Source: Armatimonadota bacterium | GTDB lineage: Bacteria; Armatimonadota; Zipacnadia; Zipacnadales; UBA5352 | Assembly (NCBI GenBank): GCA_050942735.1 | Contig: JBMNNW010000006.1 | Span: forward strand, 18,793 to 82,792 | DNA: 64,000 nucleotides | Direction: 5' to 3' | Shown: positions 5,971 to 33,728 of the stretch, piece after piece | Numbering within the stretch: the first letter of the stretch is position 1 | Layout: every line of letters begins with the position of its first letter | Notes under the pieces: generated by a model | Database searches by the model: none | What the model saw: the letters and a program-made list of their open reading frames with translations, nothing else | What the model was told of the DNA's origin: nothing | Translations under genes and position numbers: made by a program

Positions 5971-6014
5971 ACTGGCTCACTCTTCCACGGTGCGCCGCGG
6001 CCTCGACGGCGGCA

Positions 6015-17476: not shown

Positions 17477-17730
17477 GGAACCGTTCCCTCCGGACGGCTT
17501 CGTGAACGGCCGGCGATGGTGCAGCAGCGCATTTCCCCGGACCCGGTGGCCCTTCCTCCCGAGCCCGCTCGAAACGCCGGTCGCAGCCACCCGCCGGGAA
17601 ATATGTCGCGGTTCGGGAACATCCCGGACGCCCCCAGACGTTGTATTCGGTGAAGTGACGATGCAATCGCCTGCGGGCATCGCAGTCCGCGGACGTTGAG
17701 CCACGGCGCGCACCTCGCGCGCCCTGGGAG

Positions 17731-18693
17731 GTGGCAGACATAGCTCTTGCCATTCGCACTGAGAACCTGACCAAGGTCTACAACGTGGGCTGGGGCCGCC
17801 AGAACATCGGCATCCAGGACCTCACGCTCGAGGTCGAAGAGGGACAGATCTTCGGCCTCGTGGGACCGAACGGATCAGGGAAGACGACCACCCTGAAGCT
17901 GCTGCTGGGTCTAATCTTCCCCACCTCCGGTACCGCGGAGGTGCTGGGTGAGCCCCTCGGCAGCCCGCACTACAAAGCGCGTATCGGTTATCTTCCCGAG
18001 GGTCCGTACTTCTACGAGCACCTCAACGCCCCGGAGCTGCTCAAGATGTACGGCAGCCTCTTCGGCCTCGGCGGCCCATCGCTGGACAAGCGCATCCAGG
18101 AGCTGCTGGAGCTCGTGGACATGTGGGACCGACGCGAATACCGCGTGGCCAACTATTCGCGCGGGATGCGCCAGCGCGTCGGGGTCGCGCAGGCGCTCAT
18201 CAACGACCCTGACCTGCTGTTCTTCGACGAGCCAACCTCCGGCCTCGACCCGATCGGCGCCAAAGACATTCGCGAGGTTATCCTTGAACTGCGCAGTCGG
18301 GGCAAGACCGTCTTCCTCTGCTCGCACCTGCTCAAGGAGATGGAGCCGATCTGTGACAACATCGCGATCCTCGCCGCCGCGAGGCTCATGACCGAGGGCT
18401 CGGTCGAGGAGCTGCTCCACAGCGAGGATGCTCATTACCGCGTCGAAGTGCGCGACCTCTCTAAGGAGACGCTCGCGGACCTCGAGCAGCGCGCGCAGAA
18501 GATCATGTGGCTCGACGAGACCTGCCGCGCGCTCTTCGATGAACGCGAGAACGCCTTCGACGCCGCCAGGATGCTTGAAGACGCGGGCGCACACCTGCTC
18601 ACAGTCGGCCCCGACCGCCGCACCCTCGAGGAAGTGTTCATCGAAACCGTTGGAGAGGAGCCCGTCGATGCGACCGATCTTTCGAGTGGCTAA
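17731..18693 (+). CDS. ABC transporter ATP-binding protein (ABC-2 type)
   Basis: Walker A GPNGSGKTT, ABC signature YSRGMRQRV, Walker B LLFFDEPTSGLD. Confidence 0.85.
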   Translation: MADIALAIRTENLTKVYNVGWGRQNIGIQDLTLEVEEGQIFGLVGPNGSGKTTTLKLLLGLIFPTSGTAEVLGEPLGSPHYKARIGYLPEGPYFYEHLNAPELLKMYGSLFGLGGPSLDKRIQELLELVDMWDRREYRVANYSRGMRQRVGVAQALINDPDLLFFDEPTSGLDPIGAKDIREVILELRSRGKTVFLCSHLLKEMEPICDNIAILAAARLMTEGSVEELLHSEDAHYRVEVRDLSKETLADLEQRAQKIMWLDETCRALFDERENAFDAARMLEDAGAHLLTVGPDRRTLEEVFIETVGEEPVDATDLSSG

Positions 18694-19489
18694 GGCCACC
18701 TTTCATGAAGGCTGGCGCAAACGATTCCTCAACGGAATCCTCGTCTTCGCCATCCTGATCATCGGCTCGTCCTGGGTCTTCACCTACCTGCAGCCGGGGG
18801 CGGAGTTGAAGATGCTCACCGACGTCGGGCTGGGCTCGATCCGCTTCTTCGGCATGCTCATCGCCGTCTTCCTGGGCGTGCGGCTGATCCCCGACGAGAT
18901 CGAGAAGCGCACGATCTACACGCTGCTGTCCAAGCCCGTCACCCGGACGCAGTTCCTGCTGGGCAAATTCCTCGGCGGCCTCGGCACCGTCATCAGCAAC
19001 GTGGCCCTGATGGGCGCGACGTTCTATCTCGTCTTCGCCATCAAGGCCCCGCAGTTCGCCACCATGACCGAAGAGACCGGCTCGCAGTACTCGATGGAGT
19101 TTATGTACGCGAACATCGCGAAGGCCATCCTTCTGAGCTTCTTCGAGCTGGCCATCGTGATGGGCATCGCCGTCGTCGCGTCGGTCATCTTCTCCTGGAT
19201 CCTCGCGGCGATCTTCACGTTCTTCGTGTACTTCGTGGGCCAGATGAGCGAGTTCTTCGGCAGCCTCGCCGACCCCGAGGCGGGCGCATCGCCGATCGCC
19301 CGCATACTGCTGGGCACGATCTACCGGATCCTGCCGCACTTCGAGATCTTTGATGTCCGTGAGGCGATCCTCACCGACGTGCCCGTAGTCTGGCACCCGT
19401 ATATGACGATGACGATGGGGACCGCCATCGTCTACGTCGGCATCGTGCTCGCGCTGGGCTATCTGTTCTTCAGCCAGCGTGAGGTGTAA
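18668..19489 (+). CDS. ABC-2 family transporter permease
   Basis: It starts at MRPIFRVAKA, overlapping the ATPase stop by 26 nt. The protein has six or more hydrophobic segments. Confidence 0.65.
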   Translation: MRPIFRVAKATFHEGWRKRFLNGILVFAILIIGSSWVFTYLQPGAELKMLTDVGLGSIRFFGMLIAVFLGVRLIPDEIEKRTIYTLLSKPVTRTQFLLGKFLGGLGTVISNVALMGATFYLVFAIKAPQFATMTEETGSQYSMEFMYANIAKAILLSFFELAIVMGIAVVASVIFSWILAAIFTFFVYFVGQMSEFFGSLADPEAGASPIARILLGTIYRILPHFEIFDVREAILTDVPVVWHPYMTMTMGTAIVYVGIVLALGYLFFSQREV

Positions 19490-19547
19490 CACAGAGCTTC
19501 GGCCGCCCCGCACCATGGGCGCGCCCAGTTTCGTCATATAGAGTGAT

Positions 19548-20564
19548 ATGATGACTAGACCAGGGAAGAGGATAATCGCCGCAGTCCTGATGGTGGCCCT
19601 GCTGCTGGGTCTGCAGCCGCTCTACGAGAACGTCGCCACCGAGCGGCTGGTGCGCGGCTACGCCCGACCCACGCAGGTCACCAAGATCCTCCAGTACGAC
19701 GCACCGGCCATGACCGGTGTGATCGTCGGAGCGATGCTGGGCGGCTTTCGTGAGGTCGCCGCATCGATGCTGTGGATGAAGACCCACACGATGTGGCATT
19801 CGGGCAGGGGCACATACTGGGACTCACTGTACCTGATGCGCATGACCACCCTGCTCGACCCGCACTGGCTCGAGCCGTGGCGGATCACCGCATGGCATTG
19901 TGCCTACAACCTCTACGTGGAGACGGATGATCCCGTGGAGCAGGCAAGGATGCTGCAACTGGGTGTGGATGTCCTCAAGGAGGGCATCTCCTGGAACCCG
20001 GATCGCTACGATCTCTATTTCGAGCTGGGATGGACCTACTTCGACAAGATCCGCGACTACGACGAGGCCGCCAGATGGCTCGGGGCCGCCACGCAGTTCG
20101 AGCACCCTGAGTACATCGAGCGGCTCATCGCCCACGGATATGAGCGCCTGCCGAACATGCCCGAGGCGCTGAAGTGGTACGACTACTGCCTCAAGCGACG
20201 ACCGTCGGACGAGACGGCCAAGGGCGCCACCATCACGATCCGCGAGCGCTATCTCCCGGCGTGGCGGCTGATGGAGGAGGGCAGGTATGATGAGGCGATT
20301 GCCGCGATCGACGGCTACCTCACCATCAACCCGCAGAGCACGCTCGCGCTGCACATGAAGGGGCATATCTTCGAGCAGGCCGGCGATCTCTACCGGGCCC
20401 GCGAGCAGTGGCAGCTCGCCGCCGAGACCATGGCGCTGAACCATCACGCGCGCTATAAGGTCGCGGTCCTGAGTGAGCAACTCGGTCTGCCCGCGCCCGA
20501 GCATCCGACGCACATCTACAAGGAGCAGCAGCGCCGGATGGCCGTGCAGCACGACATGGACTGA
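19548..20564 (+). CDS. Membrane-anchored TPR-like repeat protein
   Basis: N-terminal transmembrane helix (IIAAVLMVALLLGL), then a W/Y-rich helical repeat region. Confidence 0.45.
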   Translation: MMTRPGKRIIAAVLMVALLLGLQPLYENVATERLVRGYARPTQVTKILQYDAPAMTGVIVGAMLGGFREVAASMLWMKTHTMWHSGRGTYWDSLYLMRMTTLLDPHWLEPWRITAWHCAYNLYVETDDPVEQARMLQLGVDVLKEGISWNPDRYDLYFELGWTYFDKIRDYDEAARWLGAATQFEHPEYIERLIAHGYERLPNMPEALKWYDYCLKRRPSDETAKGATITIRERYLPAWRLMEEGRYDEAIAAIDGYLTINPQSTLALHMKGHIFEQAGDLYRAREQWQLAAETMALNHHARYKVAVLSEQLGLPAPEHPTHIYKEQQRRMAVQHDMD

Positions 20565-20637
20565 GCCGACGCGCAGAAGAAGGGATAACACCTCCGCGAG
20601 GTCAATGGGCACCTATCCCGCTCGCGGAGGTGTTCGC

Positions 20638-23190
20638 ATGTACCGCAATGGCCTCAAGCACGTCGTCGGCCTCATCATCATCGCGTCATTCGCCGCCCCG
20701 CTGCTCGATGCCGCTCCACTCGATGCCGCGTGGGAGCGCGAAAAGCTCGCGCAGGGCTCGTGGGTCTCCGATGACGCGAGTTTCGCCCCGGACGCCGATG
20801 GCGTCGTCACAGTCACCCGAGGCGCCCCACACCACAGTCGCCTCACCACAATCATCGTCGCCGACCTCACAGGAGCGCCGTGGCTCGACCTGCGCGCTCA
20901 CGCCTCCAACGCTCAGTGGAAGCTCACCGGCAGCTTCGCGGGCGGCCCGGAGATCGTCATCGCGGATCGCCAGACGGTGGGCCGCTGCACCCGAAATCTC
21001 GCGGAGCTGTTCGGCGCGCAGGGTGCCGGCGAACTGCGCCTGCACATGCATATCTGGGGCTGGGGCAGCGGAGCCGGCCACTACGTGCGCTTCACGCCCT
21101 CTCTCAGCGCGGACGCAGACCGGTCGGACGCGGCCGAACTGCTCGACGGGATGGAGCGCATCGACGCGAGCTGCCGGTCGGCCGCGCGTGACATCCGGCC
21201 GGCGGTGGAGGGCCATCCGAGGCTGCGTTTCAGCGACGAAGGCCGCGATCGTTGGAGAGAGCTGGCCGCCGCGCACCCGCAGTACGGGCAGCCGCTGGTG
21301 GGTATCATCGCGAACCTCGACGCCCACCGGGCGGAGGAGCCCTACGTCTTCGACGCGGTCTCGACACAGACCAGGCGGCCCGCGTGGGGCGAGAACCTTC
21401 TGTCGGTCCGCCCCCCCGTCGCACCCGACCTGGAGCCCGGTGAGGGCCGCGATCCGTTCGCCGGGATGGCCACCGAGGGCGCATGGAGGACGCTCTACTG
21501 GCACAGCTTCTCCCACTGGCTGATCGGCGCCGCGCTGTCGGATGAGCCCGACTTCGCCGAGCAGGCGAAGCGCTGGGCCCTTGAGCTGACTCGATGGCGC
21601 TTCTGGCTGGAGCCCGACTACATCTACTTCGACTTCGGCACCGCCTACCCGCTGCAGTGCCTCGCTTCGGCGTACGACATCGCCTCAGGCCGGATGATCG
21701 GCGATGAACTGGCCGAAGTGCGCGAGGCGATAGCGACGCTCGCCGATGGCCTCTACCTCAACACTATCTCCGGCCACGGCTCGATCTACAACGACCTGCG
21801 CGGGAACCACACCGCGGTGACGATGTGCGGGCTCGGGATGGCAGGCTGTGTCCTGCTCGGCGAGGACGAGCGCGCGCCGCTGTGGATCGCGCTTGCCGAG
21901 CGCTTCATGCTCGACGCATTCGAAGAGCATACCTCCGGGGCGTGGGTCGAGTCGCCCAGCTACGGAGCCTACGGCGTCAATGAGTGGCTGAGACTCGCGG
22001 AGGTGGTGCGTAATGTCACCGGCAGGAACCACTTCGGCCACCCGTTCCTGCGGCGCTTCGCGGAGTACCAGCTTCACATCGCCGACTGGGAGGGCCGCGA
22101 TCTCGGCTACAACGGCGGGGGCGCGGGGCAGTACTGGAACCAGTGGGTGTTCCACGCCATCGCGCGGCAGTGGCAGGACCCGCGCTTTCAGTGGCTCGCG
22201 CGCCCGACCGGCGAGGCGCTGTCGGGCGCCGGTTACGGCGACACGCTCTGGTGGATCGATCCAGACCTCGCCGCCCAGCGCCCGGCGGAGGCAGCCACCG
22301 GTCGGCATTTCGCGGACATCGGCGTGAACGTCTGGCGCAGCGGCTGGGAGGATGATGCGACCATCCTGCTGCACCACTGCGGGATGAAGGGCCAGCACAA
22401 AGAGGAGAACATGAACCACGTGACACTCTACGCGCTGGGCCGGCGCATCCTCCCGGACGGGCTCGGCGGCGGCACGGCCGATCACAACGTGGTGATGGTC
22501 GATGACCGCATTCAGAACAAGTGGATGCCGGGTGCGACCGTGGCGTATCACTGTGACGAGCGCTCCGGCTACTCCCTCGGCGACGCGCAGAGCGCCTACT
22601 TCGGTTGGCGGCGGCACGTGCTCTTCCTGCGGCCCGATCTCGTGGTGCTCATCGACGACGTCCCGCTGGGCGACCGCGATGACCGCGATGTGCGCTTTAT
22701 GCTGCACCCGAGCGGTGAGACCGTGGCGGAGGGCGCGCTGCTGACGGTGCGCTCGGGGGAGGTGGCGCTCCAGGCGATGACGGTGCTGCCGGACGGGAGC
22801 GCGCTGCCGATGGCCGCCGGGGCGCGGGAGCAGCAGGGCAGGGCGACGCACGACGCGTGGGCATCGTACACCGGGCGGGGCGATCTGCGAGCCGTCACGC
22901 TGCTGCTGATCTCCCCCGCGCCCGATCCGCCCGCGCCGTCGGTGACGGCCGCCGAGGGCGTCCTGCACATCGCGCACGGCGACCGGGAGTTCGTGCTCGG
23001 CCTGCGGGAGGGCGACATCGCCCAGGGTTTCAGCACGAACGCCGACCTGTGGCTCGCGCGTCTCGTGGGCGGCGTACCTGAGGCGATTCTGGTGCCGGGA
23101 GCAGAGGAGATGGGCGACGTACAGACAGGCCTCCGGACACCCGCCGGGGTCATAAGCGGAAGCCCGGCGGTGAGTTGGGGCGCAGAGTGA
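20638..23190 (+). CDS. Heparinase II/III-like (alginate-lyase superfamily) secreted protein
   Basis: Internal Met at 20638 gives the signal peptide MYRNGLKHVVGLIIIASFAAPLLDA. It has an N-terminal (alpha/alpha) toroid-like region and a C-terminal heparinase II/III-like block (HHCGMKGQHKEENMNHVTLYALGRR ... HNVVMVDD). Confidence 0.6.
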   Translation: MYRNGLKHVVGLIIIASFAAPLLDAAPLDAAWEREKLAQGSWVSDDASFAPDADGVVTVTRGAPHHSRLTTIIVADLTGAPWLDLRAHASNAQWKLTGSFAGGPEIVIADRQTVGRCTRNLAELFGAQGAGELRLHMHIWGWGSGAGHYVRFTPSLSADADRSDAAELLDGMERIDASCRSAARDIRPAVEGHPRLRFSDEGRDRWRELAAAHPQYGQPLVGIIANLDAHRAEEPYVFDAVSTQTRRPAWGENLLSVRPPVAPDLEPGEGRDPFAGMATEGAWRTLYWHSFSHWLIGAALSDEPDFAEQAKRWALELTRWRFWLEPDYIYFDFGTAYPLQCLASAYDIASGRMIGDELAEVREAIATLADGLYLNTISGHGSIYNDLRGNHTAVTMCGLGMAGCVLLGEDERAPLWIALAERFMLDAFEEHTSGAWVESPSYGAYGVNEWLRLAEVVRNVTGRNHFGHPFLRRFAEYQLHIADWEGRDLGYNGGGAGQYWNQWVFHAIARQWQDPRFQWLARPTGEALSGAGYGDTLWWIDPDLAAQRPAEAATGRHFADIGVNVWRSGWEDDATILLHHCGMKGQHKEENMNHVTLYALGRRILPDGLGGGTADHNVVMVDDRIQNKWMPGATVAYHCDERSGYSLGDAQSAYFGWRRHVLFLRPDLVVLIDDVPLGDRDDRDVRFMLHPSGETVAEGALLTVRSGEVALQAMTVLPDGSALPMAAGAREQQGRATHDAWASYTGRGDLRAVTLLLISPAPDPPAPSVTAAEGVLHIAHGDREFVLGLREGDIAQGFSTNADLWLARLVGGVPEAILVPGAEEMGDVQTGLRTPAGVISGSPAVSWGAE

Positions 23191-23275
23191 GTTGCCCTGG
23201 CACGTCGGCCGGACGTGACGACGCCCGGGGCATTTCGCCCCGGGCGTCGCGTTCGCCCTCCCTCACGCGGGCGTG

Positions 23276-23959
23276 TCAGTCGCTGGACTTCGGCAGATAC
23301 GGGATCAGGCGCATCGCGAGGCTCGGCACCGGCATCGTCTGCAGCCACACCCGGCCCGGACCGGTGACGGTCGCGAGGAAAAGGCCCTCGCCGCTGAGGA
23401 AGATGTTCCTTACACCCGCGACCCGCTCGATGTCGAAGTTGACGGTCGGATCCATCATCGCGATATGCCCCGGATCGACCTTCAGCCCCTGCCCGGCCTG
23501 GAGGTTGTACTCCACGACCTCACCGTCGATCTCGAAGAACGCCAGCCCCGGCCCGCTCACCTTCTGCATGAAGAGCCCCTCGCCGCCGAAGAACGCGGCG
23601 CCCAGACGCTTGTGCATGTGCATGTCAAGCTCAACGCTCGCCGCCGCAACCATGAAGGCATCCCGCTGGCAGATCAGGCTCTGACCGGCGGCAAGGTCCT
23701 CCACGAGCACCTTGCCGGGCAGCTCGGGCGTGAAGGTCACGAAACCCGTGCCCGAGGTGCATGTGTAGTCGGTCATAAAGAGCGATTCGCCGGAGACTTT
23801 GCGCTTGAGCGCGCCCATCAGGCCGCCCTTCATGTTCGTGTCCATCTCGATGTTGGCGGTCATCCACGCCATCCCGCCCGCCTCAGTATATACCGACTCC
23901 CCCTGCTGCAGCGTGATCTCGACACTCTGCATGACCGTCCCGCGGATCGAGTACTCCAT
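23276..23959 (-). CDS. AIM24/DUF124 (TIGR00266) family protein, paralog B
   Basis: 227 aa with motifs characteristic of the family (MEYSIRGTVMQSVEI... GEGLF). It is about 70 % identical to the upstream neighbour. Confidence 0.65.
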   Translation of the reverse strand: MEYSIRGTVMQSVEITLQQGESVYTEAGGMAWMTANIEMDTNMKGGLMGALKRKVSGESLFMTDYTCTSGTGFVTFTPELPGKVLVEDLAAGQSLICQRDAFMVAAASVELDMHMHKRLGAAFFGGEGLFMQKVSGPGLAFFEIDGEVVEYNLQAGQGLKVDPGHIAMMDPTVNFDIERVAGVRNIFLSGEGLFLATVTGPGRVWLQTMPVPSLAMRLIPYLPKSSD

Positions 23960-24047
23960 CGCCTGCGCCCTCCTGAGAGTGCGGATTGAGGTGGCCGAAC
24001 GATCAACCGGTCATGAGCTGCCGTCACGGCGGACGGAGACGCCGCCG

Positions 24048-24728
24048 CTATGACGACGTCGCGATGTAGCGTGAGAGCTTCGCCGCAAGGTTCGGCAGCG
24101 GCATGGTCTGCAGCCACACCCTGCCCGGTCCGGTGACATTGGCGAGGAAAAGGCCCTCCCCGCTGAAGAGCACGTTGGTGACACCCTTGATCCTCGTTAT
24201 GTCGAAGTCCACGGTGGGGTCCATCAAGGCGATGTGTCCCGGATCAACCCTCAGTGACTGGCCGGCCTGAAGGTCGTACTGCACCGTCTCACCGGCGATC
24301 TCGAAGAATGCGAGCCCCGGGCCCGTGACTTTCTGCAGGATCAGGCCCTCGCCACCGAAAAGACCCGCGCCGAGTCGGCGGGTGACATGCATGTCGAGTT
24401 CCACACTCTGCTCGGCGCACATGAACGCATCGCGCTGGCAGATCATCGATTGACCCGGGGCAAGTTCGATCGGGATGATCGTGCCGGGGGTCTCGAGTGT
24501 GAAGGTAACGAAGCCCGAGCCCGACTCGCAGGTGTAGGTGGTCATGAACAGCGACTCACCGGCGGCCTTCCGCTTCAGCGCGCTCATCAGGCCGCCCCTC
24601 ATGTTGGCGTCCATACCGATGTTGGCGGTCATCCAGGCCATGCCGCCAGCCTCTGTGTACACCGACTCGCCCTGCTGCAGCGAGATCTCAACGCTCTGCA
24701 TGACAGTTCCGCGGATCTGGTACTCCAT
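24048..24728 (-). CDS. AIM24/DUF124 (TIGR00266) family protein, paralog A
   Basis: 226 aa, a tandem duplicate of 23276..23959. Confidence 0.65.
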   Translation of the reverse strand: MEYQIRGTVMQSVEISLQQGESVYTEAGGMAWMTANIGMDANMRGGLMSALKRKAAGESLFMTTYTCESGSGFVTFTLETPGTIIPIELAPGQSMICQRDAFMCAEQSVELDMHVTRRLGAGLFGGEGLILQKVTGPGLAFFEIAGETVQYDLQAGQSLRVDPGHIALMDPTVDFDITRIKGVTNVLFSGEGLFLANVTGPGRVWLQTMPLPNLAAKLSRYIATSS

Positions 24729-24773
24729 GGCGCGTCCTCCCGTGTCCCGGCAGTCGATTCGGATGGTCGGAGA

Positions 24774-26150
24774 TCACTCGATCCTGTGGCCGCACTCCCG
24801 GCAGAACTTGCTGGCCGGGTCGAGTCCGGAGCCGCAGTTCGCGCAGAACTTCGGCGTCGAGGATTCCTCTGCCCGCTCGGCGGGTTCGGCCGGACGGAGA
24901 AAGTCCGATGCAGAGCTGCCCTCTGCCTTCGGCTCCTCCGAAGGCTCGGCCGGGCGCAGGAAGGCGCTGGCGGGAGGAGGCTCGTCGGGAGCCTCACCCT
25001 GCGGCGGAGCGTCCTGAGCAGGCGGCGCGGGCGTCGGAGCTTCGGTCGGGCGCGGCACGGCAGGCCCCGCCTCGGACGGACGCGCCGGGCTAACGTCCGC
25101 GGGAGGTTCGGAGGCGCCCGAAGGCGTCGGACCGACCGGCGGAGGCAGATCGTCCGCGCCGCCGCTGCCCGGCCGCTCGCGCGGCGTGGTGATGCCGCGG
25201 AAGGCGAGGACGGCGACGCCAATCACCACGATGGCGACGAGGAACCAGAAGGCCTTGATGAACAGCGTGACGATGGTGACGGACACAAGCGCGAACACGA
25301 AGGCGATCCCCGCGAACGCGCAGGAGAGATGGTCGCCGACCAGTGGGATATACCCCACCAGGGTGGTGAGCGGGCCGAAGATCAGCATGATCCCCATGAA
25401 GATGGCGAACACCGCCCCGGCCCTCATCCCCCATTTCGCCATCTTGTACTCCCGCTTGAGCGTCTCGAGGGTCTGCTGCTCGTTCTGCGTGCTGACGACG
25501 AAGCTGTAGCCGCCCTGGATGGAGCCGCCGGAGATCTCGCCGACAACGATCACAGGACTGGTCGCATCAAGTACCTCCACGCTCTTGCGCATGTCGCCGA
25601 CCTCGGCGCTGCCGGGCTCGGTCCCGACGTGGAAGTCGGTCTCAAAGCGCTTGCGGTAGGCCTTGTAGACCTCCTTCTCGCCGACCGGGTTGGCACCCTC
25701 GGGGCGTATCTCAATCCCGTCGATACGGAAGGAACTGACCCAGCCCCTGTCGGTGGAGGCGGTGTTCCAACTGTAGCTGACGTCGCCGTCTGAGTCCTCC
25801 TCGCGCTCGTATTCCTCGATGCGCTTGTAGTAGTAGAGGGCCTGACCGTCCCACTCGTCGATCCTCAGGAAGTCGCCCTGCGGCTGGCCCTGCGTCTTGA
25901 CCAACTCGCCCTCCATCCCCCTCGTGGCCTCGGGCTGGACCATCTCGAGGGCCTCAAAGACCTTCCCGTGGTTAACCAGCTTTGCCTCAGCGTGGTAGGC
26001 CAGGTAGAACCCGAGGGGGATCAGCACGATCCCTATGAGGACGCCGAAGACCGCGCCGCAACCGCCGCCGCAGCCCTTGCTGGCGCCCCGCGCGCCCGCC
26101 CCGCCGCCGCCCACATTGACACCGCCCACCTTGAAGTTGAAGCCAGACAT
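24774..26150 (-). CDS. TMEM43/DUF1625-like membrane protein with Pro-rich linker and C-terminal CxxC...CxxC zinc ribbon
   Basis: Topology is 1 TM (res ~33-52), an approximately 180-aa soluble domain, 3 TMs, a Pro/Ala/Glu-rich low-complexity tail, then FCANCGSGLDPASKFCRECGHRI. A GGAGGG RBS sits 6 nt before the ATG. Confidence 0.5.
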   Translation of the reverse strand: MSGFNFKVGGVNVGGGGAGARGASKGCGGGCGAVFGVLIGIVLIPLGFYLAYHAEAKLVNHGKVFEALEMVQPEATRGMEGELVKTQGQPQGDFLRIDEWDGQALYYYKRIEEYEREEDSDGDVSYSWNTASTDRGWVSSFRIDGIEIRPEGANPVGEKEVYKAYRKRFETDFHVGTEPGSAEVGDMRKSVEVLDATSPVIVVGEISGGSIQGGYSFVVSTQNEQQTLETLKREYKMAKWGMRAGAVFAIFMGIMLIFGPLTTLVGYIPLVGDHLSCAFAGIAFVFALVSVTIVTLFIKAFWFLVAIVVIGVAVLAFRGITTPRERPGSGGADDLPPPVGPTPSGASEPPADVSPARPSEAGPAVPRPTEAPTPAPPAQDAPPQGEAPDEPPPASAFLRPAEPSEEPKAEGSSASDFLRPAEPAERAEESSTPKFCANCGSGLDPASKFCRECGHRIE

Positions 26151-26332
26151 CGGACGCCCTCCTGTGTTCCCGCTGAGTGCGCTGCAGGACGTTGTTTCTT
26201 TGACGCCACCGGAAATCCTGCGTGCGGCGGCGGCGATTGTTGTCGTGGAGGCAGGTCGTGGTCAGTCGCCGAAACGCCCCTGGGGGGAGGGCCCGGCGGA
26301 GAGTCGGGGGCCGCGAACCAGCCTCAACAGAT

Positions 26333-26354
26333 CCCCGCGCCTCAACGCGCGGGG
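26333..26354 (-). terminator. GC hairpin (ccccgcgc-ctcaac-gcgcgggg) just after HD-domain gene stop
   Basis: Read from the sequence. It lies 40-60 nt downstream of the stop at 26391 on the minus strand. Confidence 0.3.
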
Positions 26355-26390
26355 AGGGCCAGCCGGGGACCGAAGGACCGCGTGGCCCCG

Positions 26391-27077
26391 CTACAGGAGC
26401 GGAACGCCGTTGATGATCAGCCGGAAGTCACAGCCAAGCATCCGCGCGGCTCGCCGGCTGATGACCATCCGCGACAGGAAGATCTCAAAATACTCCATCA
26501 CCGAGCCGATCTCGGTGTCGATCGTCAGGTCGAGGCTGATCGTCTTCGTCTCGGCCGAGACCTCCAGCCGGGTATCCCGTACGGCGTAGTTGATGCGGTC
26601 GTGGATGTCGAAGGCCGCCATGTGCGGATTGCGCACACGTTCGCGCGCCACGTCGGCCTTGTCGCCGATCACAACCGCCGCGCCGAATTCGGAGGTTGGC
26701 TCATAGCTGGTATCCTCATCGTGGGTGCCGACCGCCGCGACGACCTGCGTCACCTCGCGGATCGGCATCCCACGCTTGCGCAACAGGTCGTAGGCGAGCA
26801 GAGCGCTTGTCGTCGCATGGTCCCTGCGGGAGACGAGGTTGCCGATGTCATGGAGCAGCCCCCCGATCTTCGCCAGCTCCACCTGGCGCTCATCGTAGTC
26901 AAGTTCCCTCAGGATCAGGCCCGCGTTCTCAGCGATGATGGTCGCGTGCCGCATCCCGTGCTCGGTATAGCCGATCGCCTTCATCTGCTGATCGGCCGCC
27001 GCGATCATCTCGCGGACCTCCGGATCGGTCCTGATCGAGTCGTATGTCACCCTGTGCTCGGTCTTCTCTTCAGTCAT
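26391..27077 (-). CDS. HD-domain phosphohydrolase
   Basis: H...HD motif (HGMRHATII ... LLHDIGN). Confidence 0.65.
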   Translation of the reverse strand: MTEEKTEHRVTYDSIRTDPEVREMIAAADQQMKAIGYTEHGMRHATIIAENAGLILRELDYDERQVELAKIGGLLHDIGNLVSRRDHATTSALLAYDLLRKRGMPIREVTQVVAAVGTHDEDTSYEPTSEFGAAVVIGDKADVARERVRNPHMAAFDIHDRINYAVRDTRLEVSAETKTISLDLTIDTEIGSVMEYFEIFLSRMVISRRAARMLGCDFRLIINGVPLL

Positions 27078-27113
27078 GGGGACTCCGTTGACGCTCCTGC
27101 GGCGTTGGAAGTT

Positions 27114-28076
27114 TCAGTGCCTCCGCTTCTTCGGAGGTCTGCGCGTGGCAAGCATGACGGCCCCGGCGGCGACCGCGATGCAGATACTCGCGAACTGCGC
27201 GACGGTCAGCGCGGGGATCGGCCCAAAGGGCTCAGCGGATGCGCCCCGGCGGAAGAACTCCACGACGAAGCGGCCCGCGGAGTAGAAGATCAGGTAGGCG
27301 AGGAAGAGATGCCCCTTGCGGCGCAGATGGCCTCGCACCAGCAGCAGCAGCCCGAAGACAGCGAGGCTGGCGAGCGCGGCGTAGAGCTGTGCGGGATGCC
27401 GCGGGACAAGAGGGTCGCCCGAGCCTGCGATGTGCGGCAGGGCGATCGCCCACGGGAGGTCGCTTGGCGCGCCGTGGCAGCAGCCGTTGAGAAAGCAGCC
27501 CACCCGCGTGACCGCATAGCCGATCGCGATCGACGGCGCAAGCAGATCGGCGATCCGCAGGAAGCTTACCTCACGGCGCGCGATGTAGAGCCATGCGCCC
27601 ACGATTCCGCCGATCAGCCCTCCGTGGAAGCTCAGGCCCCCCTCCCAGACCTTGAGCACCTCGATGGGCTGCCCCGCAAAGTCACCCCAGTTGAGGGCCA
27701 CCGCCAGCAGTCGGGAGCCGATCACCGCGCCGACGAGGATCGCCAGTGTGACGTCGATGAGCAGGTCAGGGTCGACCTCGTCATCGTTGCGGCTGTCCCA
27801 CATCGCCCACAGCATGCCGCCGATGAAGCCGATCATGAGCATCGTGCCCCATGAGCGGATCGCCACCGGCCCCCAGCGGTGCAGTCCCAGCGAGACTCCC
27901 GCGCCGATGGCGATGCCGATCAGCGGCATCACGATCAGGCGCGCGACGCGGGGATAGTTGCCGAGCCGGCGCTGCTCGAGAATCTCCAGCAGCAGCGCCC
28001 CACCACCGAGGATCGCGCACAGCAGCATTGCAGCCCACAGGGGTGGGCCTGGTATCAGGGCAAGCACGGGGCACAT
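27114..28076 (-). CDS. lgt: Prolipoprotein diacylglyceryl transferase (copy 2)
   Basis: GGLSFHGGLIGG and RVGCFLNGCCHG. It sits next to lspA. Confidence 0.8.
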   Translation of the reverse strand: MCPVLALIPGPPLWAAMLLCAILGGGALLLEILEQRRLGNYPRVARLIVMPLIGIAIGAGVSLGLHRWGPVAIRSWGTMLMIGFIGGMLWAMWDSRNDDEVDPDLLIDVTLAILVGAVIGSRLLAVALNWGDFAGQPIEVLKVWEGGLSFHGGLIGGIVGAWLYIARREVSFLRIADLLAPSIAIGYAVTRVGCFLNGCCHGAPSDLPWAIALPHIAGSGDPLVPRHPAQLYAALASLAVFGLLLLVRGHLRRKGHLFLAYLIFYSAGRFVVEFFRRGASAEPFGPIPALTVAQFASICIAVAAGAVMLATRRPPKKRRH

Positions 28077-28080
28077 GTGG

Positions 28081-28623
28081 TCAGTCGCTGTCCTCTCCGC
28101 TACAGGTGGGGTGGGGGTGGCCCAGGATGGTGGCGATGATCAGCAGCCCCGCGCCGACGGTGATCGCGATGTCGGCGACGTTAAAGACCGGCCAGAAATG
28201 CAGGTCGATATAGTCGATGACGTAGCCGACCCGGACGCGGTCGATGAGATTTCCCAGCGCGCCGCCCAGTACGGTCGCCACGGCCGATGCGAGCAGCCGG
28301 CTCCCCCCAAGCCGCGGCGCGATGACGATGAGCGCTAACACCACGAGGGCCGCCACCGCCACGAGCAGGCCGGTGCTCGAATCGAGGATCCCAAACGCTC
28401 CCCCGGTGTTCGTGGCCCAGGTGAGGCTCAACCACGACGTCAGCGGGATCGACTCTGCGCCGCGCAACCACTGTACGGCGGCCAGCTTCGCCGCCTGATC
28501 GGCGGCCACGATCGCCGCCGCCATCAGGTAGACCGCAATCGCGGGCGACCTGCCCGGCGACTCGCCGTCAGATGGTACGCCTGACGCGGGGACGCTCACA
28601 TTCCCGAAAGGCCCGACCGGCAT
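28081..28623 (-). CDS. lspA: Lipoprotein signal peptidase II
   Basis: Conserved LspA blocks [19 protein letters not shown] and FNVADIAI. The start is uncertain (Met at 28623 or 28524). The ORF-track start at 28686 overlaps the traR-like gene. Confidence 0.7.
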
Positions 28624-29045
28624 TCCTTGCACATGGTCGCCCACGGGAGCACACTGAGGCGCTTCTTCGTGATCGGCTTGCCGCAACTGTCGCAGATCCC
28701 GTAGGTGCCTTCCTCGACTTTCTCGAGGGCGGCGAGGACCTCATCGAGCTGCTCGCGGAGCGACGCGCCGACGGCCATCGACTGCGCACGCTCGACCGTC
28801 TCGGTTGCGGCGTCGCCCCCGGGCTCATCGAAGTCCTGACCGGCCTGGTCCGAGTGCAGGCGGTCGCGGCCAGCGGCCCTGTCCTCGATCCGCTTCAACT
28901 CGGTCGTCAGACGATCCCGCTCCTCAATCAGTATCTTCTCGTACTTCTCAACATCCAGCGTTCGTTTTCGCGCCACCGTGCGTGACCTCCGATGCGCATA
29001 GTCAGACCGGGCGCCAATTCCCCGGATTGAGCGGGCCACCTTCAT
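28596..29045 (-). CDS. DksA/TraR-family C4-type zinc-finger protein
   Basis: Coiled-coil region, then CDSCGKPI...CKEC. A start at MKVARS (29045) is preferred over the ORF-track start at 29165, which would overlap ileS. Confidence 0.6.
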
Positions 29046-29119
29046 GAAGCCCGAGAATATCCGAAAGCCACTGTCCGCGCGTCTAACCACGCCGGTATCG
29101 AGCTGGCCGATCCCGGCGG

Positions 29120-31924
29120 CTATCCTGATAGTATGCGGTTTACCCTCTCGGCGCACCGGCCACACAATTCAGGATGCTCCTCGTTCATGCCCGTGCTCTC
29201 CGCGCGCATCCAGCAACGCGTGCACTTGTCGCCGCCCGCCAGCCTCGCCTCCGCCCGGATGCCGGATGGGGCGGCGATGCCATCATCGCTGTCCTCGATG
29301 TGATGCAGATGGACCTCGGAGACGATGAAGAGAGTCGCGAGGTTCTCCTCCACTCCCTCGAGGGTCGCCCGCGCCGCGTCGGTGAGATGCAGGTCAAGGC
29401 GCGCCTCCAGCGGGTTATTGACCTCACCCGCATCCTTGGCCGCCTCCAGGGCCGCCATCGCAACCCGTCGCAGGTCCAGCACCGAGCGCCACCTGGTCGC
29501 GAGGCCCTCGTCCATCAGCTCCTCGTCAACCTCCGGCCAGTCCGCGAGCTGCACGCTCTCGGGGAGGCTCCCGTCAATCTCCTCGCGCATGTGCTGCCAG
29601 AGTTCCTCCGACGTAAAGGTCAGCACCGGCGCCATCATTGTCGCCAGCGCCCGCAGAACCCGCCACAGCGCCGTCTGAGCGGAGCGCCGCTCGGGAGATT
29701 CCGGCACGTCGGTGTAAAGGCGATCCTTCAGTACGTTCAGGTAGAACGCGCTGAGGTCCTGATCGCAGAGCGCGTGGATCTCGCGATAGACGATGTGCAG
29801 GTCCCACCGGTCGTACGCATCGGTGACCGACTGAACCCGCCGCTGCAGCCGGTCGAGCACCCAGCGATCGATCTCTCGAAGCTCGGAGTGCGCCACCGTG
29901 TCGGTCGCGGGGTCGAAGTCCTGAAGGTTCTGCAGCAGGAAGCGCGCGGTGTTTCGCACGCGACGGTATGCGTCGGCGACCTGCCCGAAGATGTCCTCCG
30001 AGAGCGCCATCTTCTGCCGGAAGTCCGCGTAGGTGAACCACAGCCGCAGCACATCGGCCCCGTATTCCTCGTAGATCTCCGCGGGGCTGATGATGTTCCC
30101 CTTGCTCTTCGAGAGCTTCGAGCCGGTCTCGTCCACGAAGAAGCCGTGGCCGACGACCGTCCGGTAGGGCGCCGGGTCGCCGAGCGCGACCGCGACCCAC
30201 AGCGATGTCTGGAACCAGCACTGATACTGATCGTCGCCCTCAAGATAGAGGTCGGCGGGGAATGTAAGCTCCGGGTGCTGGCGCAGCACGCAGTAGTGCG
30301 AGCAGCCCGAGTCCACCCAGACCGACATGATGTCGGGCTCCTTGGTGAACGTGCTCCCCTCGCAGCCCTCGGCGGCGCAGGTCGCGCCTTCAGGCAGAAG
30401 GTCGGCCGCCTCCCGCTCCCACCACACGTCCGCGCCGTGCTCCGCCACCAGTTCGCTGAGGTGACTGATCGTCTCCTCGGTGATGAGCCGCTCGCCGCAT
30501 TTCTCACAGTAGAAGACCGGGATCGGCACTCCCCAGACGCGCTGGCGCGAGATGCACCAGTCCGGCCGCGACTCGATCATCCCGCCGATGCGGCTCTCTC
30601 CCCACGACGGGTTCCAGTGAACGTTCCTGATCTCCTCAAGCGCCCGGTCGCGGATTTTCTCGATGTCCATGAACCACTGCCTGGTGGCGCGGTAGATCAC
30701 GGGGCGATGGCACCGCCAGCAGTGCGGGTACTCGTGCTCGATCTGCGCCTCGCCCACGAGCGCCCCCAGCTCGCGCAGGACATCCTTGACCTCATCGTTG
30801 GACCGGTCGGCGACGAGGCCCTCAAGGGCCTCACCCGCCTCCGCCGTGTAGCGGCCAAGGTCGTCGAGCGGGCTGATGACCTGAAGATCGTACTTCAGCG
30901 CGGTCTCGTAGTCCTCCAGACCGTGGCCGGGGGCGGTGTGCACCGCGCCCGTCCCGTCCTCGACGGTCACGTAGTCGGCCAGCACGATCGGCGACTGCCG
31001 GTCGTACATCGGATGCTTCGCCACGAGACCCTCAAGCTCGGCGCCCTCGAAGCGGGCGATCACCTCGTACTTCCCGATGCGACACTCAGCCATCGAGCGC
31101 TCCAGCAGATCATGCGCGAGGATCAACATACGCTCGCCGGTGTCCACGAGAACGTACTCGGCGTCTCCGGCAAGCGCGATGGCGGTGTTGCCCGGAATCG
31201 TCCACGGGGTGGTCGTCCAGATAAGGAAGCTCACCGGCCCCTCGGGCGGATTGTCCATGGGCAGCTCGGAGGCTTCGGTCAGTTCGAAGGCCACGTAGAC
31301 GGCCGGGGAGGTCCGTGTCTCGTACTCGATCTCGTCCTCCGCCAGAGCGGTCTCGCAGTGGTAGCACCAGTAGACCGGGCGCAGGGCGCGATAGACCAGA
31401 TCGTTGAGAGCGATCCTGCCGAACGCCTCGATCTGCCTGGCCTGGTACTCCGGCGACAGCGTCAGGTAGGGGTTGTCCCAGTCGCCGCGGACGCCGATGC
31501 GCTTGAACTGCTCGCGCTGCGTGTCAACGTAGCCCAGCGCGAGGTCGCGGCACAACTCGCGCCACTCCAGCACGGAGACGTCATGGCGCATGATGCCCCT
31601 GTTCTTCTGCACGCTCTGCTCGGTGGGCAGGCCCTGTGTATCCCATCCGGGGACGTAGGGGCAGTCATAGCCCCGCATTGTCTTGTACTTGATGGTGATA
31701 TCTTTGAGGATCTTGTTGAGCGCCTGTCCGAGGTGGATATCGCCGTTTGCGTAGGGAGGTCCGTCGTGGAGGATGTAGGTGGGCGCTCCGTCGCGCAGCT
31801 CCCGCACGCGGCGGTAGATATCCAGTTCCTCCCACATCGTCAGTATCTGCGGCTCGCGCTCGGGAAGGTTCCCGCGCATCGGGAACTGGGTGCGCTGGAG
31901 ATTCAGTGTGTCCTTGTAATCCAT
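29120..31924 (-). CDS. ileS: Isoleucine--tRNA ligase (type 1, with C-terminal zinc-binding CTRCW motif)
   Basis: HIGH motif region PYANGDIHLGQALNKILKD and KMSKS (KLSKSKGNI). The start is MDYKDTLNL at 31924. The N-terminal 43 aa in the ORF track are an upstream extension. Confidence 0.9.
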   Translation of the reverse strand: MDYKDTLNLQRTQFPMRGNLPEREPQILTMWEELDIYRRVRELRDGAPTYILHDGPPYANGDIHLGQALNKILKDITIKYKTMRGYDCPYVPGWDTQGLPTEQSVQKNRGIMRHDVSVLEWRELCRDLALGYVDTQREQFKRIGVRGDWDNPYLTLSPEYQARQIEAFGRIALNDLVYRALRPVYWCYHCETALAEDEIEYETRTSPAVYVAFELTEASELPMDNPPEGPVSFLIWTTTPWTIPGNTAIALAGDAEYVLVDTGERMLILAHDLLERSMAECRIGKYEVIARFEGAELEGLVAKHPMYDRQSPIVLADYVTVEDGTGAVHTAPGHGLEDYETALKYDLQVISPLDDLGRYTAEAGEALEGLVADRSNDEVKDVLRELGALVGEAQIEHEYPHCWRCHRPVIYRATRQWFMDIEKIRDRALEEIRNVHWNPSWGESRIGGMIESRPDWCISRQRVWGVPIPVFYCEKCGERLITEETISHLSELVAEHGADVWWEREAADLLPEGATCAAEGCEGSTFTKEPDIMSVWVDSGCSHYCVLRQHPELTFPADLYLEGDDQYQCWFQTSLWVAVALGDPAPYRTVVGHGFFVDETGSKLSKSKGNIISPAEIYEEYGADVLRLWFTYADFRQKMALSEDIFGQVADAYRRVRNTARFLLQNLQDFDPATDTVAHSELREIDRWVLDRLQRRVQSVTDAYDRWDLHIVYREIHALCDQDLSAFYLNVLKDRLYTDVPESPERRSAQTALWRVLRALATMMAPVLTFTSEELWQHMREEIDGSLPESVQLADWPEVDEELMDEGLATRWRSVLDLRRVAMAALEAAKDAGEVNNPLEARLDLHLTDAARATLEGVEENLATLFIVSEVHLHHIEDSDDGIAAPSGIRAEARLAGGDKCTRCWMRAESTGMNEEHPELCGRCAERVNRILSG

Positions 31925-32043
31925 CCGCTGATTTCCTCTCGCCACATGGGCCGAGGTGGGGTAGTGAAAGAGTCGCCGAGGCTCCGTGTGCTGCGAGAGC
32001 CTCCGCGACCATGCGGTTCGGTCCGTGATCGGGCTGTGCGCGC

Positions 32044-32072
32044 AGTTTACCACACTGATGCATATATATCAA
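32044..32072 (-). promoter_or_regulatory. Candidate sigma70-type promoter for ileS operon (TTGATA-17-TAAACT on minus strand)
   Basis: Read from the sequence. It lies about 113 nt upstream of the ileS ATG, in the only AT-rich patch of the ileS/fabZ divergent region. Confidence 0.3.
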
Positions 32073-32246
32073 CCCGCCCGGTGCCGCGGACGGGCAGCGC
32101 GGGGAGGCCGTCGGCGAAGGGCCGGATCACCCGTCCTCCGGGGGCGCCAGGCCCGGAGTCCCGCCGGTAGACAGCCGAGGCTCGGAGGGGCTCGCCGGGC
32201 CGCCCTCCGAGCCCCAGGTTCAGACGCGGCAGGGGGTCGCGGCGGT

Positions 32247-32276
32247 TTGACTCCCTTTCGACGGCTCTGTTATAAT
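32247..32276 (+). promoter_or_regulatory. Candidate sigma70-type promoter for fabZ-lpx operon (TTGACT-18-TATAAT)
   Basis: Near-consensus hexamers read from the sequence, about 110 nt upstream of the fabZ ATG. Confidence 0.4.
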
Positions 32277-32387
32277 CGCCGCGGCTTTCGCGGATGAGCT
32301 TGAGCGGCCGTCGCGGGACCGCGGTGTTGGCGGATGCCGCCTGCGGAGCCTGTGACGGTCGATGCATTATTCAGGAGGCGCCTGCCG

Positions 32388-32837
32388 ATGCTTCAGACCC
32401 GGGAGATCATGGAGATACTCCCCCATCGCTACCCGTTCCTGCTCGTCGATCGGATCGTCGAGCTTGAGCCCGGGGTGCGGGCGGTAGGGATCAAGAACGT
32501 CACCGCCAATGAGCCGCAGTTCACCGGCCACTGGCCGGACAACCCCGTCTTCCCCGGTGTGCTGATCCTCGAGGCCATGGCCCAGGTCGGCGGGGTGCTC
32601 CTGCTGACGGGCATCGAGTCCGAGGATATGCTTGCGCTCTTCGGCGGGGTGGACAAGGCGCGCTTCCGCAGGCAGGTTGTCCCCGGAGACCAGCTTCGCT
32701 TTGAGATCGAGATGCTGCGCCGCAAGGCCACGATCGGCAAAGTCAAGGGCGTTGCCACCGTTGACGATCAGGTTGCCGCCGAAGCCGAGCTTATGTTCGC
32801 ACTGACCGCGCCCCCCAACGCCGAGTCGGACGAATGA
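32388..32837 (+). CDS. fabZ: 3-hydroxyacyl-ACP dehydratase
   Basis: [14 protein letters not shown] ... FTGHWP ... PGVL. An AGGAGG RBS lies 9 nt upstream of the ATG at 32388. Confidence 0.85.
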
Positions 32838-32859
32838 ACCACGCAGGCCGGAGGAGCAA

Positions 32860-33636
32860 ATGACGATCCATCAGACAGCAATCGTTGATCCCGGCGCGGA
32901 GCTTGGGGAGGGCGTTGAGGTCGGGCCGTTCTGCATCATCGAGAGCGGCGTGACCATCGGCGCGAACTGTCGAATCGGCCCGCACTGCGTCATCAGAAGT
33001 CACGTCACGATGGGCGGCGACAACACCCTCGACGTGGGGGTCGTTCTCGGCTCCGATCCGCAGGACGCCAAGTACCGGGGCGAGCGCAGCTTCGTCCGCA
33101 TCGGCAACGGCAATCTTATCCGCGAGTATGTAACGATCCACCGCGCGACCGGCGAGGACGCCGAGACGAGCGTCGGCGACAACAACTTCCTGATGGCATA
33201 CGCGCACCTCGGGCACAACGTTCGCGTCGGCTCCAACTGCAGCCTGGCGAGTTTCGCGGGCCTCAGCGGCCACTGCGTCGTGCAGGACCGCGCGATCATC
33301 GGCGGGCTCTCCGGACTCCACCAGTACGTTACCGTCGGTCGGATGTGCATGATCGGCGGGCACTCACGGGTGACGCGCGACATTCCGCCGTTCACCACCG
33401 CCCAGGGTAACGAGATCCACGGAATCAACGTAATCGGGCTGCAGCGCAACGGGGTCAGCCGCGAGGATCAGTCGGCGCTGCGCGAGGCGTTCAGGACCAT
33501 CTACCGCTCAGACGTCAACACCTCCGATGCGATCGATCGACTCCGCGGTGAGGGGGCGCTCTGCTCGCTGGTGGAGGAGTTCATCGCGTTCATCGAGCAC
33601 TCGAACGCCGGCGGCAGAGGCCGCCAGCAGGGCTGA
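32860..33636 (+). CDS. lpxA: Acyl-ACP--UDP-N-acetylglucosamine O-acyltransferase
   Basis: Left-handed beta-helix hexapeptide repeats. It starts MTIHQTAIVDP, with a GGAGGAG RBS. Confidence 0.85.
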   Translation: MTIHQTAIVDPGAELGEGVEVGPFCIIESGVTIGANCRIGPHCVIRSHVTMGGDNTLDVGVVLGSDPQDAKYRGERSFVRIGNGNLIREYVTIHRATGEDAETSVGDNNFLMAYAHLGHNVRVGSNCSLASFAGLSGHCVVQDRAIIGGLSGLHQYVTVGRMCMIGGHSRVTRDIPPFTTAQGNEIHGINVIGLQRNGVSREDQSALREAFRTIYRSDVNTSDAIDRLRGEGALCSLVEEFIAFIEHSNAGGRGRQQG

Positions 33637-33728
33637 GGCAGACCGCCGCGACGGGCGGCCAGCGCGAGCGGCTTTCGGCGATGGGACGCCCTGCGGCGCG
33701 GGACGATGCAGACCGGACGGAGGGGCTG

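Follow-up and report, generated by a model that had tools for sequence, protein, structure and literature searches.

A TMEM43-family gene followed by two AIM24 paralogues in one clade of Armatimonadota: a possible membrane-associated module

Introduction

TMEM43 is a human disease gene, which is associated with the cardiomyopathy ARVC5 and with hearing loss. The topology of the human protein is said to have been treated by Bengtsson and Otto in 2008. According to a review, human TMEM43 (Gapjinc) has been reported to be a non-selective cation channel, its topology has been described inconsistently, and no TMEM43 structure is available (PMC11059273); likewise, a search of the PDB found no TMEM43 structure. 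For the AIM24 family, partners are known from eukaryotes. Yeast Aim24 associates with MICOS and has been linked to MICOS and respiratory supercomplexes, and in plants EBS7, a component of the Hrd1 complex of endoplasmic reticulum-associated degradation, is bound at its cytosolic domain by PAWH1/2 (PMC6677890). The AIM24 fold consists of three TRAP-like beta-sandwich repeats, and a trimeric ring has been modelled for PAWH1/2; the bacterial members, including those with solved structures, have no known function (PMC6677890). According to the passage of PMC5822837 that cites Anantharaman et al. (2012), AIM24 domains are frequent neighbours of TerD. Here, we analyse a stretch of 64,000 nucleotides (nt) from an Armatimonadota bacterium (assembly GCA_050942735.1, contig JBMNNW010000006.1, positions 18,793 to 82,792 of the forward strand), hereafter called the window, in which a gene for a TMEM43-like membrane protein is followed by two genes for AIM24 proteins.

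An original prediction had characterized these three genes as a dedicated membrane-associated module, composed of two families that have no assigned function in bacteria and between which no link has been described. Within the searchable literature the latter part is accurate, and no paper connecting TMEM43 and AIM24 was found. The proteins are already annotated members of two known, uncharacterised families; it is the pairing of their genes that appears to be undescribed and lineage-specific. All predicted open reading frames (ORFs) are present on the minus strand, and the three genes form the tight same-strand trio that had been proposed, with gaps of 45 and 88 nt. This gene structure is firm:

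24774-26150, minus strand: TMEM43-family (DUF1625) membrane protein of 458 residues with a putative C-terminal zinc ribbon (PF07787)
24048-24728, minus strand: AIM24/TIGR00266 paralogue A of 226 residues (PF01987, TIGR00266), starting 45 nt past the TMEM43 stop
23276-23959, minus strand: AIM24/TIGR00266 paralogue B of 227 residues (PF01987, TIGR00266), 88 nt past A

With eukaryotic TMEM43/LUMA, the bacterial protein appears by hydropathy to share a layout of one transmembrane (TM) helix, a large hydrophilic domain and a hydrophobic block of approximately three helices, and its match to PF07787 is significant. In contrast to the eukaryotic protein, it matches only the C-terminal half of the profile and carries in addition a long, disordered tail rich in Pro and a putative zinc ribbon; furthermore, a bacterium has no nuclear envelope and no lamin or emerin partners. 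AIM24-B is homologous over its full length to PA3696 from P. aeruginosa (1YOX) and also matches SpyM3_0169 from S. pyogenes (1PG6), whereas here two diverged paralogues lie behind a membrane protein gene. Yeast Aim24 and Arabidopsis PAWH1/PAWH2 possess the same domain and are peripheral partners that stabilise integral membrane complexes. However, these partners (Mic proteins; EBS7 and Hrd1) are unrelated to TMEM43, and the PAWH proteins have a C-terminal membrane anchor, which the AIM24 proteins of the window lack.

Results

Conservation of the TMEM43-AIM24 arrangement

A word-indexed search yielded 56 homologues of the TMEM43-like protein, the named ones of which are all from Armatimonadota or unclassified bacteria. 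For the TMEM43 loci, 19 of which are from species-representative genomes and 17 from metagenomes, six-frame ORFs were searched with the proteins of the window, and a neighbour-joining tree was calculated on the TMEM43 core. In this tree, a single monophyletic clade holds all loci in which AIM24 lies behind the TMEM43 gene. Among its members are metagenome-assembled genomes (MAGs) with the labels Candidatus Zipacnadia (a class of Armatimonadota), WS1 and UBA5352.

The arrangement is firmly established throughout this clade. All members with more than approximately 140 nt of downstream sequence possess AIM24 in one or two copies. The distance between the TMEM43 stop and the AIM24 ATG is 20-64 nt in 15 loci, and the spacing stays tight while the identity of the TMEM43 proteins drops to about 50%. 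The adjacency is therefore not a peculiarity of this genome. Those clade loci for which upstream sequence is available share their flanks, with the ileS block on one side and DUF4962-TPR-ABC-2 transporter genes on the other. A tblastn search of plasmids with TMEM43 found nothing. The tightly coupled, unannotated neighbours of distant TMEM43 homologues in loci L020, L023, L025 and L026 were considered as hidden AIM24 proteins and were rejected, since they gave no match up to E = 1.

Age and mode of the AIM24 duplication

AIM24-A and AIM24-B are identical in 75% of their residues and in 77% of their coding nucleotides. As had been noticed originally, the resemblance extends upstream: The 88 nt ahead of B are 60% identical to the 88 nt ahead of A, which is better than 1000 of 1000 shuffles. 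The latter 88 nt comprise the 45-nt spacer and, ahead of it, the final 43 nt of the TMEM43 gene, such that the 3' end of this gene was part of the duplicated segment. The duplication thus firmly qualifies as one that occurred in place, with AIM24 already located behind the TMEM43 gene.

The duplication had been considered recent, which does not agree with the AIM24 tree. A clusters with the first copies of related loci (L001, L002, L003, L005, L034, L043), to which it is 78-85% identical, compared to 75% for its own neighbour B. B clusters with the second copies, to which it is 83-91% identical, and with the single copies of loci L006, L011, L036, L038 and L047. Thus, separate orthologues of A and of B exist in six or more related genomes. 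Because A is closer to the first copies of the relatives than to B, the duplication predates these species; the sequence comparison firmly indicates that it is old and common to at least six of them. B is, judged by the tree, the ancestral AIM24 type, since the single-copy genomes carry it. The assignment to A or B is less clear for L008 and L009, and the order of the copies is reversed in L004.

Signals for a probable common transcription unit

The following elements surround the trio:

26151-26390, minus strand: spacer of 240 nt between the HD-domain gene and the TMEM43 gene
26157-26163, minus strand: Shine-Dalgarno site AGGAGGG of the TMEM43 gene, read from the sequence
23218-23250, minus strand: perfect 14-bp GC-rich hairpin, detected by RNA folding

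Each of the three genes is preceded by a Shine-Dalgarno site (AGGAGG, GGGAGGA and AGGAGG, respectively, as read from the sequence) 6-8 nt ahead of the ATG, in agreement with the ribosome-binding site that had been claimed for the trio. The two internal spacers fold no better than shuffled sequences (z about +1). After AIM24-B follows the hairpin, which has a folding energy of -56 kcal/mol (z = -4.8); none of 200 shuffles was as stable. It sits between the convergent AIM24-B and DUF4962/heparinase II/III-like genes, has no U tract, and is probably a terminator for both directions in this GC-rich genome. We infer that the trio is co-transcribed as one unit, because it has unstructured internal spacers and is closed by a strong hairpin. 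A second hairpin, located in the spacer between the HD and TMEM43 genes, had been thought to insulate the trio from the HD gene. This proposal had to be dropped, since the stability of this second hairpin does not exceed that of shuffled sequence (z = -0.3).

The approximately 75 nt nearest to the TMEM43 start can be aligned with the upstream regions of three related loci (L002, L003, L034). On the basis of this alignment, the TMEM43 gene has probably kept its own promoter or leader; the 240-nt spacer, and within it the proximal 75 nt or so, likely contains a promoter or 5' leader that stayed with the gene. A sigma-70 consensus was sought upstream of the TMEM43 gene and was not found. An element GCAGGATT(N~17)GAAACA at 26191-26222, about 45-75 nt before the TMEM43 start, is conserved with the same three loci. 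It differs from the sigma-70 consensus and may be a lineage-specific promoter or leader element.

Architecture of the TMEM43-like protein

The assignment to TMEM43 is firm: The 458-residue protein matches Pfam PF07787 with E = 5e-14 and 52.6 bits at a gathering cutoff of 23.3. The match is limited to profile positions 112-246 of 250, i.e. to the C-terminal half, and the aligned region corresponds to the hydrophobic block of residues 244-320. A 100% identical protein from an Armatimonadota MAG is deposited at NCBI under the name 'TMEM43 family protein [Armatimonadota bacterium]'. A structural model was calculated by means of AlphaFold2 (AF2) from 20 homologues. Its mean predicted local distance difference test (pLDDT) value is 75.6, with values above 90 in the beta-rich domain (residues 60-220, approximately). 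The model places the zinc ribbon with confidence and leaves the tail disordered. The following features were delineated:

26058-26075, minus strand: Gly-rich N-terminal segment ending GCGGGCG, residues 26-31, directly before the first TM helix
25992-26054, minus strand: first TM helix, residues 33-53 (hydropathy; AF2 helix 30-57)
25476-25979, minus strand: beta-rich soluble domain, residues 58-225, acidic and cysteine-free
25191-25421, minus strand: hydrophobic block, residues 244-320, with two or three further TM helices (hydropathy; AF2 helices 224-266 and 274-321)
24852-25190, minus strand: disordered Pro/Ala/Glu-rich linker, residues 321-433 (pLDDT below 50; composition)
24882-24965, minus strand: motif [DEA]F[LM]RPAEP in the disordered linker, two copies, residues 396-403 and 416-423
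24792-24845, minus strand: putative C-terminal zinc ribbon CxxC-x10-CxxC, residues 436-453 (Zn_Ribbon_1 just under the cutoff)

Within the N-terminal segment, G30 and C31 are nearly invariant, even among distant homologues; the GCGGGCG segment might be a lipidation or metal site. The hydropathy plot reveals segments at about 33-53, 244-266 and 277-320. The last one comprises 44 residues and offers room for two TM helices; the AF2 model draws residues 274-321 as one continuous helix with pLDDT values of 70-84. Depending on the model, the beta-rich domain could face either outwards (four helices) or inwards (three helices).

With 27% Pro, 17% Ala and 12% Glu, the composition of residues 321-433 bears out the long Pro/Ala/Glu-rich linker of the original prediction. 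One or two copies of the motif [DEA]F[LM]RPAEP are present approximately 20 residues ahead of the zinc ribbon in 11 of the 12 closest homologues (P0001-P0012, with the exception of P0008), whereas more distant homologues lack it. The motif may serve in docking. For the C terminus, Pfam PF13240 (Zn_Ribbon_1) yielded E = 3e-5 and 24.0 bits, which is slightly below the cutoff of 25. The four-cysteine motif is kept in most homologues and has pLDDT values of 81-88 in the AF2 model; its spacing is x10 and not x13 as initially read. Because of this four-cysteine ribbon, the C terminus is likely cytoplasmic.

The AIM24 paralogues and their relatives

The family membership of A and B is equally firm. 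Both proteins match PF01987 across its full length (positions 1-205 of 205) with E values of about 5e-73, and their TIGR00266 scores of 124.2 bits (A) and 140.8 bits (B) exceed the cutoff of 96.6, as expected from the initial assignment. Both are already contained in NCBI, from an Armatimonadota MAG, under AIM24 family names. Residues 1-218 of AIM24-B are homologous to 1YOX (E = 1.7e-44), and 1PG6 was matched with E = 5.7e-23.

AIM24 evolves slowly and is very widespread, with 7832 clusters at E<=1e-10. On plasmids, too, it has various neighbours. Two Cytophagales plasmids, p1 of Flammeovirga kamogawensis and pAT2 of Aureibacter tunicatorum, contain a gene for an M48 metallopeptidase, behind which three diverged TIGR00266 genes lie in tandem (L051:3152-6352, L054:1433-4618). 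As in the window, the gene of a membrane-associated protein is followed on the same strand by tandem diverged AIM24 paralogues. The arrays differ in having an M48 peptidase upstream and three AIM24 copies instead of two, and they belong to a different phylum. To our knowledge, they have not been described in the literature. This recurrence suggests, by gene order, that AIM24 hetero-oligomers pair with membrane proteases there. On a Deinococcus plasmid, AIM24 is divergent from an adjoining SPFH-NfeD pair. Moreover, in loci L059, L060 and L061 (5001-6541), which belong to other lineages of Armatimonadota, an AP_endonuc_2 gene, which codes for a xylose-isomerase-like TIM barrel, follows 42-63 nt after a single AIM24 gene. 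This pairing holds in two different upstream contexts and thus constitutes a different conserved neighbour.

Genomic neighbourhood and inversion of the ileS-HD block

On the minus strand, the gene order is ileS, DksA/TraR-type gene, lspA, lgt, HD gene, 240-nt spacer, TMEM43-like gene, AIM24-A and AIM24-B. The neighbouring features are:

29120-32053, minus strand: ileS
about 28596-29165, minus strand: DksA/TraR-type zinc-finger gene (dksA-like)
28081-28686, minus strand: lspA (HMM match)
27114-28076, minus strand: lgt of the lspA-lgt operon (HMM match)
26391-27077, minus strand: HD-domain gene (HMM match)
17659-23190, one flank: ABC-2 transporter ATPase and permease, TPR protein, and 905-residue DUF4962/heparinase II/III-like protein
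32304-34877, opposite flank: fabZ, lpxA and lpxB
within 26151-26390 and within 32054-32303: breakpoints of the inversion described below

Searches with hidden Markov models (HMMs) upheld the HD and lgt assignments and also identified lspA. The trio is flanked in the window by envelope genes for lipid A (fabZ-lpxA-lpxB) and for lipoprotein maturation (lspA-lgt). An additional lgt paralogue lies at 4975-5976 on the minus strand (PF01790, E = 4.5e-48), approximately 21 kb from the lspA-lgt copy; the window therefore contains two prolipoprotein diacylglyceryl transferase genes.

Compared to 11 related Armatimonadota genomes, the five-gene block ileS-dksA-lspA-lgt-HD (26391-32053) is inverted. In these relatives, fabZ-lpxA-lpxB-HD-lgt-lspA-dksA-ileS lie on one strand and TMEM43-AIM24 on the opposite one, such that ileS and the TMEM43 gene are divergent. 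The inversion is seen in this genome alone, and the flanks fabZ-lpxA-lpxB and TMEM43-AIM24 are unchanged. A search for inverted repeats at both block ends yielded no more than short and imperfect matches, which are compatible with chance. The inverted block is either a real lineage-specific inversion or an error of the MAG assembly. As the block is inverted here and divergent in the 11 relatives, HD and lgt do not belong to the trio unit. The order lgt-HD-TMEM43, which had been regarded as part of the design, is a product of this inversion.

Discussion

The reading that we tentatively prefer, at somewhat less than an even chance, is that of a co-transcribed membrane-associated module within an envelope-biogenesis neighbourhood, in which the AIM24 proteins are peripheral cytoplasmic partners of the TMEM43-like protein. 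The module would be expressed as one transcription unit with a separate upstream region, a Shine-Dalgarno site for each gene, short spacers free of structure and a terminal hairpin. The TMEM43-like product would comprise an N-terminal TM helix and an acidic domain rich in beta structure, followed by a hydrophobic block with two or three helices, a disordered tail of about 110 residues and a presumably cytoplasmic zinc ribbon, and the AIM24 products would be two soluble cytoplasmic paralogues with the TRAP-like triple beta-sandwich fold. The arrangement has a single origin in the common ancestor of an Armatimonadota clade (including members of Candidatus Zipacnadia and WS1-labelled MAGs), in which a widely conserved single-copy AIM24 gene came to sit directly behind a TMEM43 gene; AIM24 was later duplicated in place, and the 3' end of TMEM43 was carried along. 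On the cytoplasmic face of the membrane, A and B could form a mixed oligomer, which would bind cytoplasmic parts of the TMEM43-like protein, i.e. the tail motif, the zinc ribbon or loops. This hypothetical interaction would be akin to the association of eukaryotic AIM24 proteins with integral membrane complexes. By stabilising or regulating the TMEM43-like protein, it would contribute to envelope or membrane homeostasis, a likewise hypothetical role. A more specific version, in which the TMEM43-like protein is physically complexed with a hetero-oligomer of A and B at the cytoplasmic membrane as a bacterial prototype of the MICOS/Hrd1 pattern, with [DEA]F[LM]RPAEP and the zinc ribbon as docking elements, is rather doubtful.

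The partnership is supported by the conserved tight spacing, the presence of AIM24 in all clade members whose downstream sequence is long enough, the in-place duplication with retention of both paralogues in at least six species and the envelope-biogenesis neighbourhood. Further support comes from the Cytophagales operons of a membrane protein and tandem AIM24, from the SPFH-NfeD pair beside AIM24 in Deinococcus, and from the binding of eukaryotic AIM24 proteins to membrane complexes. That the trio is a unit is in accordance with its conserved upstream region and with its integrity despite the neighbouring inversion. Several observations weigh against the partnership. Among the loci studied, the adjacency goes back to a single origin and never occurs outside one and the same syntenic block, so that its persistence does not count as separate evidence for coupling. 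Within 6-8 kb, no AIM24 was found in two sister Armatimonadota TMEM43 clades (36-46% identity) or next to distant TMEM43 homologues (23-28% identity). AIM24 orthologues with 59-66% identity, from an Anaerolineae MAG and three unclassified metagenome contigs, stand alone in housekeeping surroundings of various kinds, and other Armatimonadota orthologues (63-72% identity) are single genes that are followed by AP_endonuc_2 and have no TMEM43 beside them. Being solitary or otherwise paired elsewhere, AIM24 does not need TMEM43. In addition, the topology of the beta-rich domain is ambiguous, given the single AF2 helix at 274-321, and five Lys/Arg residues ahead of the second TM helix suit a cytoplasmic location of this domain, which poorly fits the four-helix model. 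Of the dedicated module that had been predicted, the tight trio thus stands, in 15 loci; its dedicated character is weakened by the single origin, the shared synteny and the stand-alone AIM24 orthologues.

Many of these observations would follow from inherited synteny without functional coupling, which is almost as likely as the partnership. AIM24 would have landed behind TMEM43 once, the neighbourhood would have remained stable, and the proteins would act independently even if they share a transcript. The single origin in a monophyletic clade that always adjoins ileS, the equal conservation of the flanking genes, the slow evolution of AIM24 (still 59-66% identical to the Anaerolineae and metagenome orthologues, and found alone or with other partners elsewhere) and the unrelated neighbours of TMEM43 homologues outside the clade all agree with it. 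However, simple inheritance does not readily explain why the spacing has remained tight at a TMEM43 identity of only about 50%, why the trio is intact after the neighbouring inversion, why both paralogues were kept after the in-place duplication, and why a membrane protein gene followed by tandem AIM24 recurs in Cytophagales. Returning to a partnership, its biochemical nature could also be that of an ion-channel module, in which an AIM24 ring gates or plugs a TMEM43-like cation channel from the cytoplasm. This idea draws on the reported channel activity of human TMEM43 and on conserved charged residues near the membrane (E55, E112, D186, R188, E234). It is improbable, as the channel claim derives mainly from the reports of one group and no TMEM43 structure is at hand (PMC11059273), and as the Pfam match spans only half of the profile. 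Still less credible is a Ter-type stress-resistance or anti-phage module, for which the role proposed for AIM24 in TerD clusters would be the model. The frequent vicinity to TerD, as stated in the citing passage of PMC5822837, speaks for it, whereas the genes around the trio serve housekeeping and envelope biogenesis and keep a stable synteny, in contrast to those of a defence island. TerD, TerB and TerC are absent from the identified neighbours (fabZ, lpxA, lpxB, ileS, dksA-like, lspA, lgt, HD, DUF4962, TPR, ABC-2). A known anti-phage defence system was also considered and rejected, because none of the three proteins was matched significantly by PADLOC; the best hit was that of the TMEM43-like protein to PD-T4-6 with E = 0.029.

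The link between TMEM43 and AIM24 goes back to one evolutionary event in an uncultured lineage and is a generator of hypotheses, not yet a discovery. Adjacency does not show joint function, and what the unit provides is a modest lead to two families about which little is understood. As a tight unit of both, it offers a cheap test of whether TMEM43 and AIM24 interact. It further provides a simple bacterial TMEM43 homologue for structural work on a family whose topology and activity are disputed. If the complex exists, a bacterial AIM24 protein would for the first time have a partner that is accessible to experiments, and a prokaryotic TMEM43 would for the first time be placed in a functional context.

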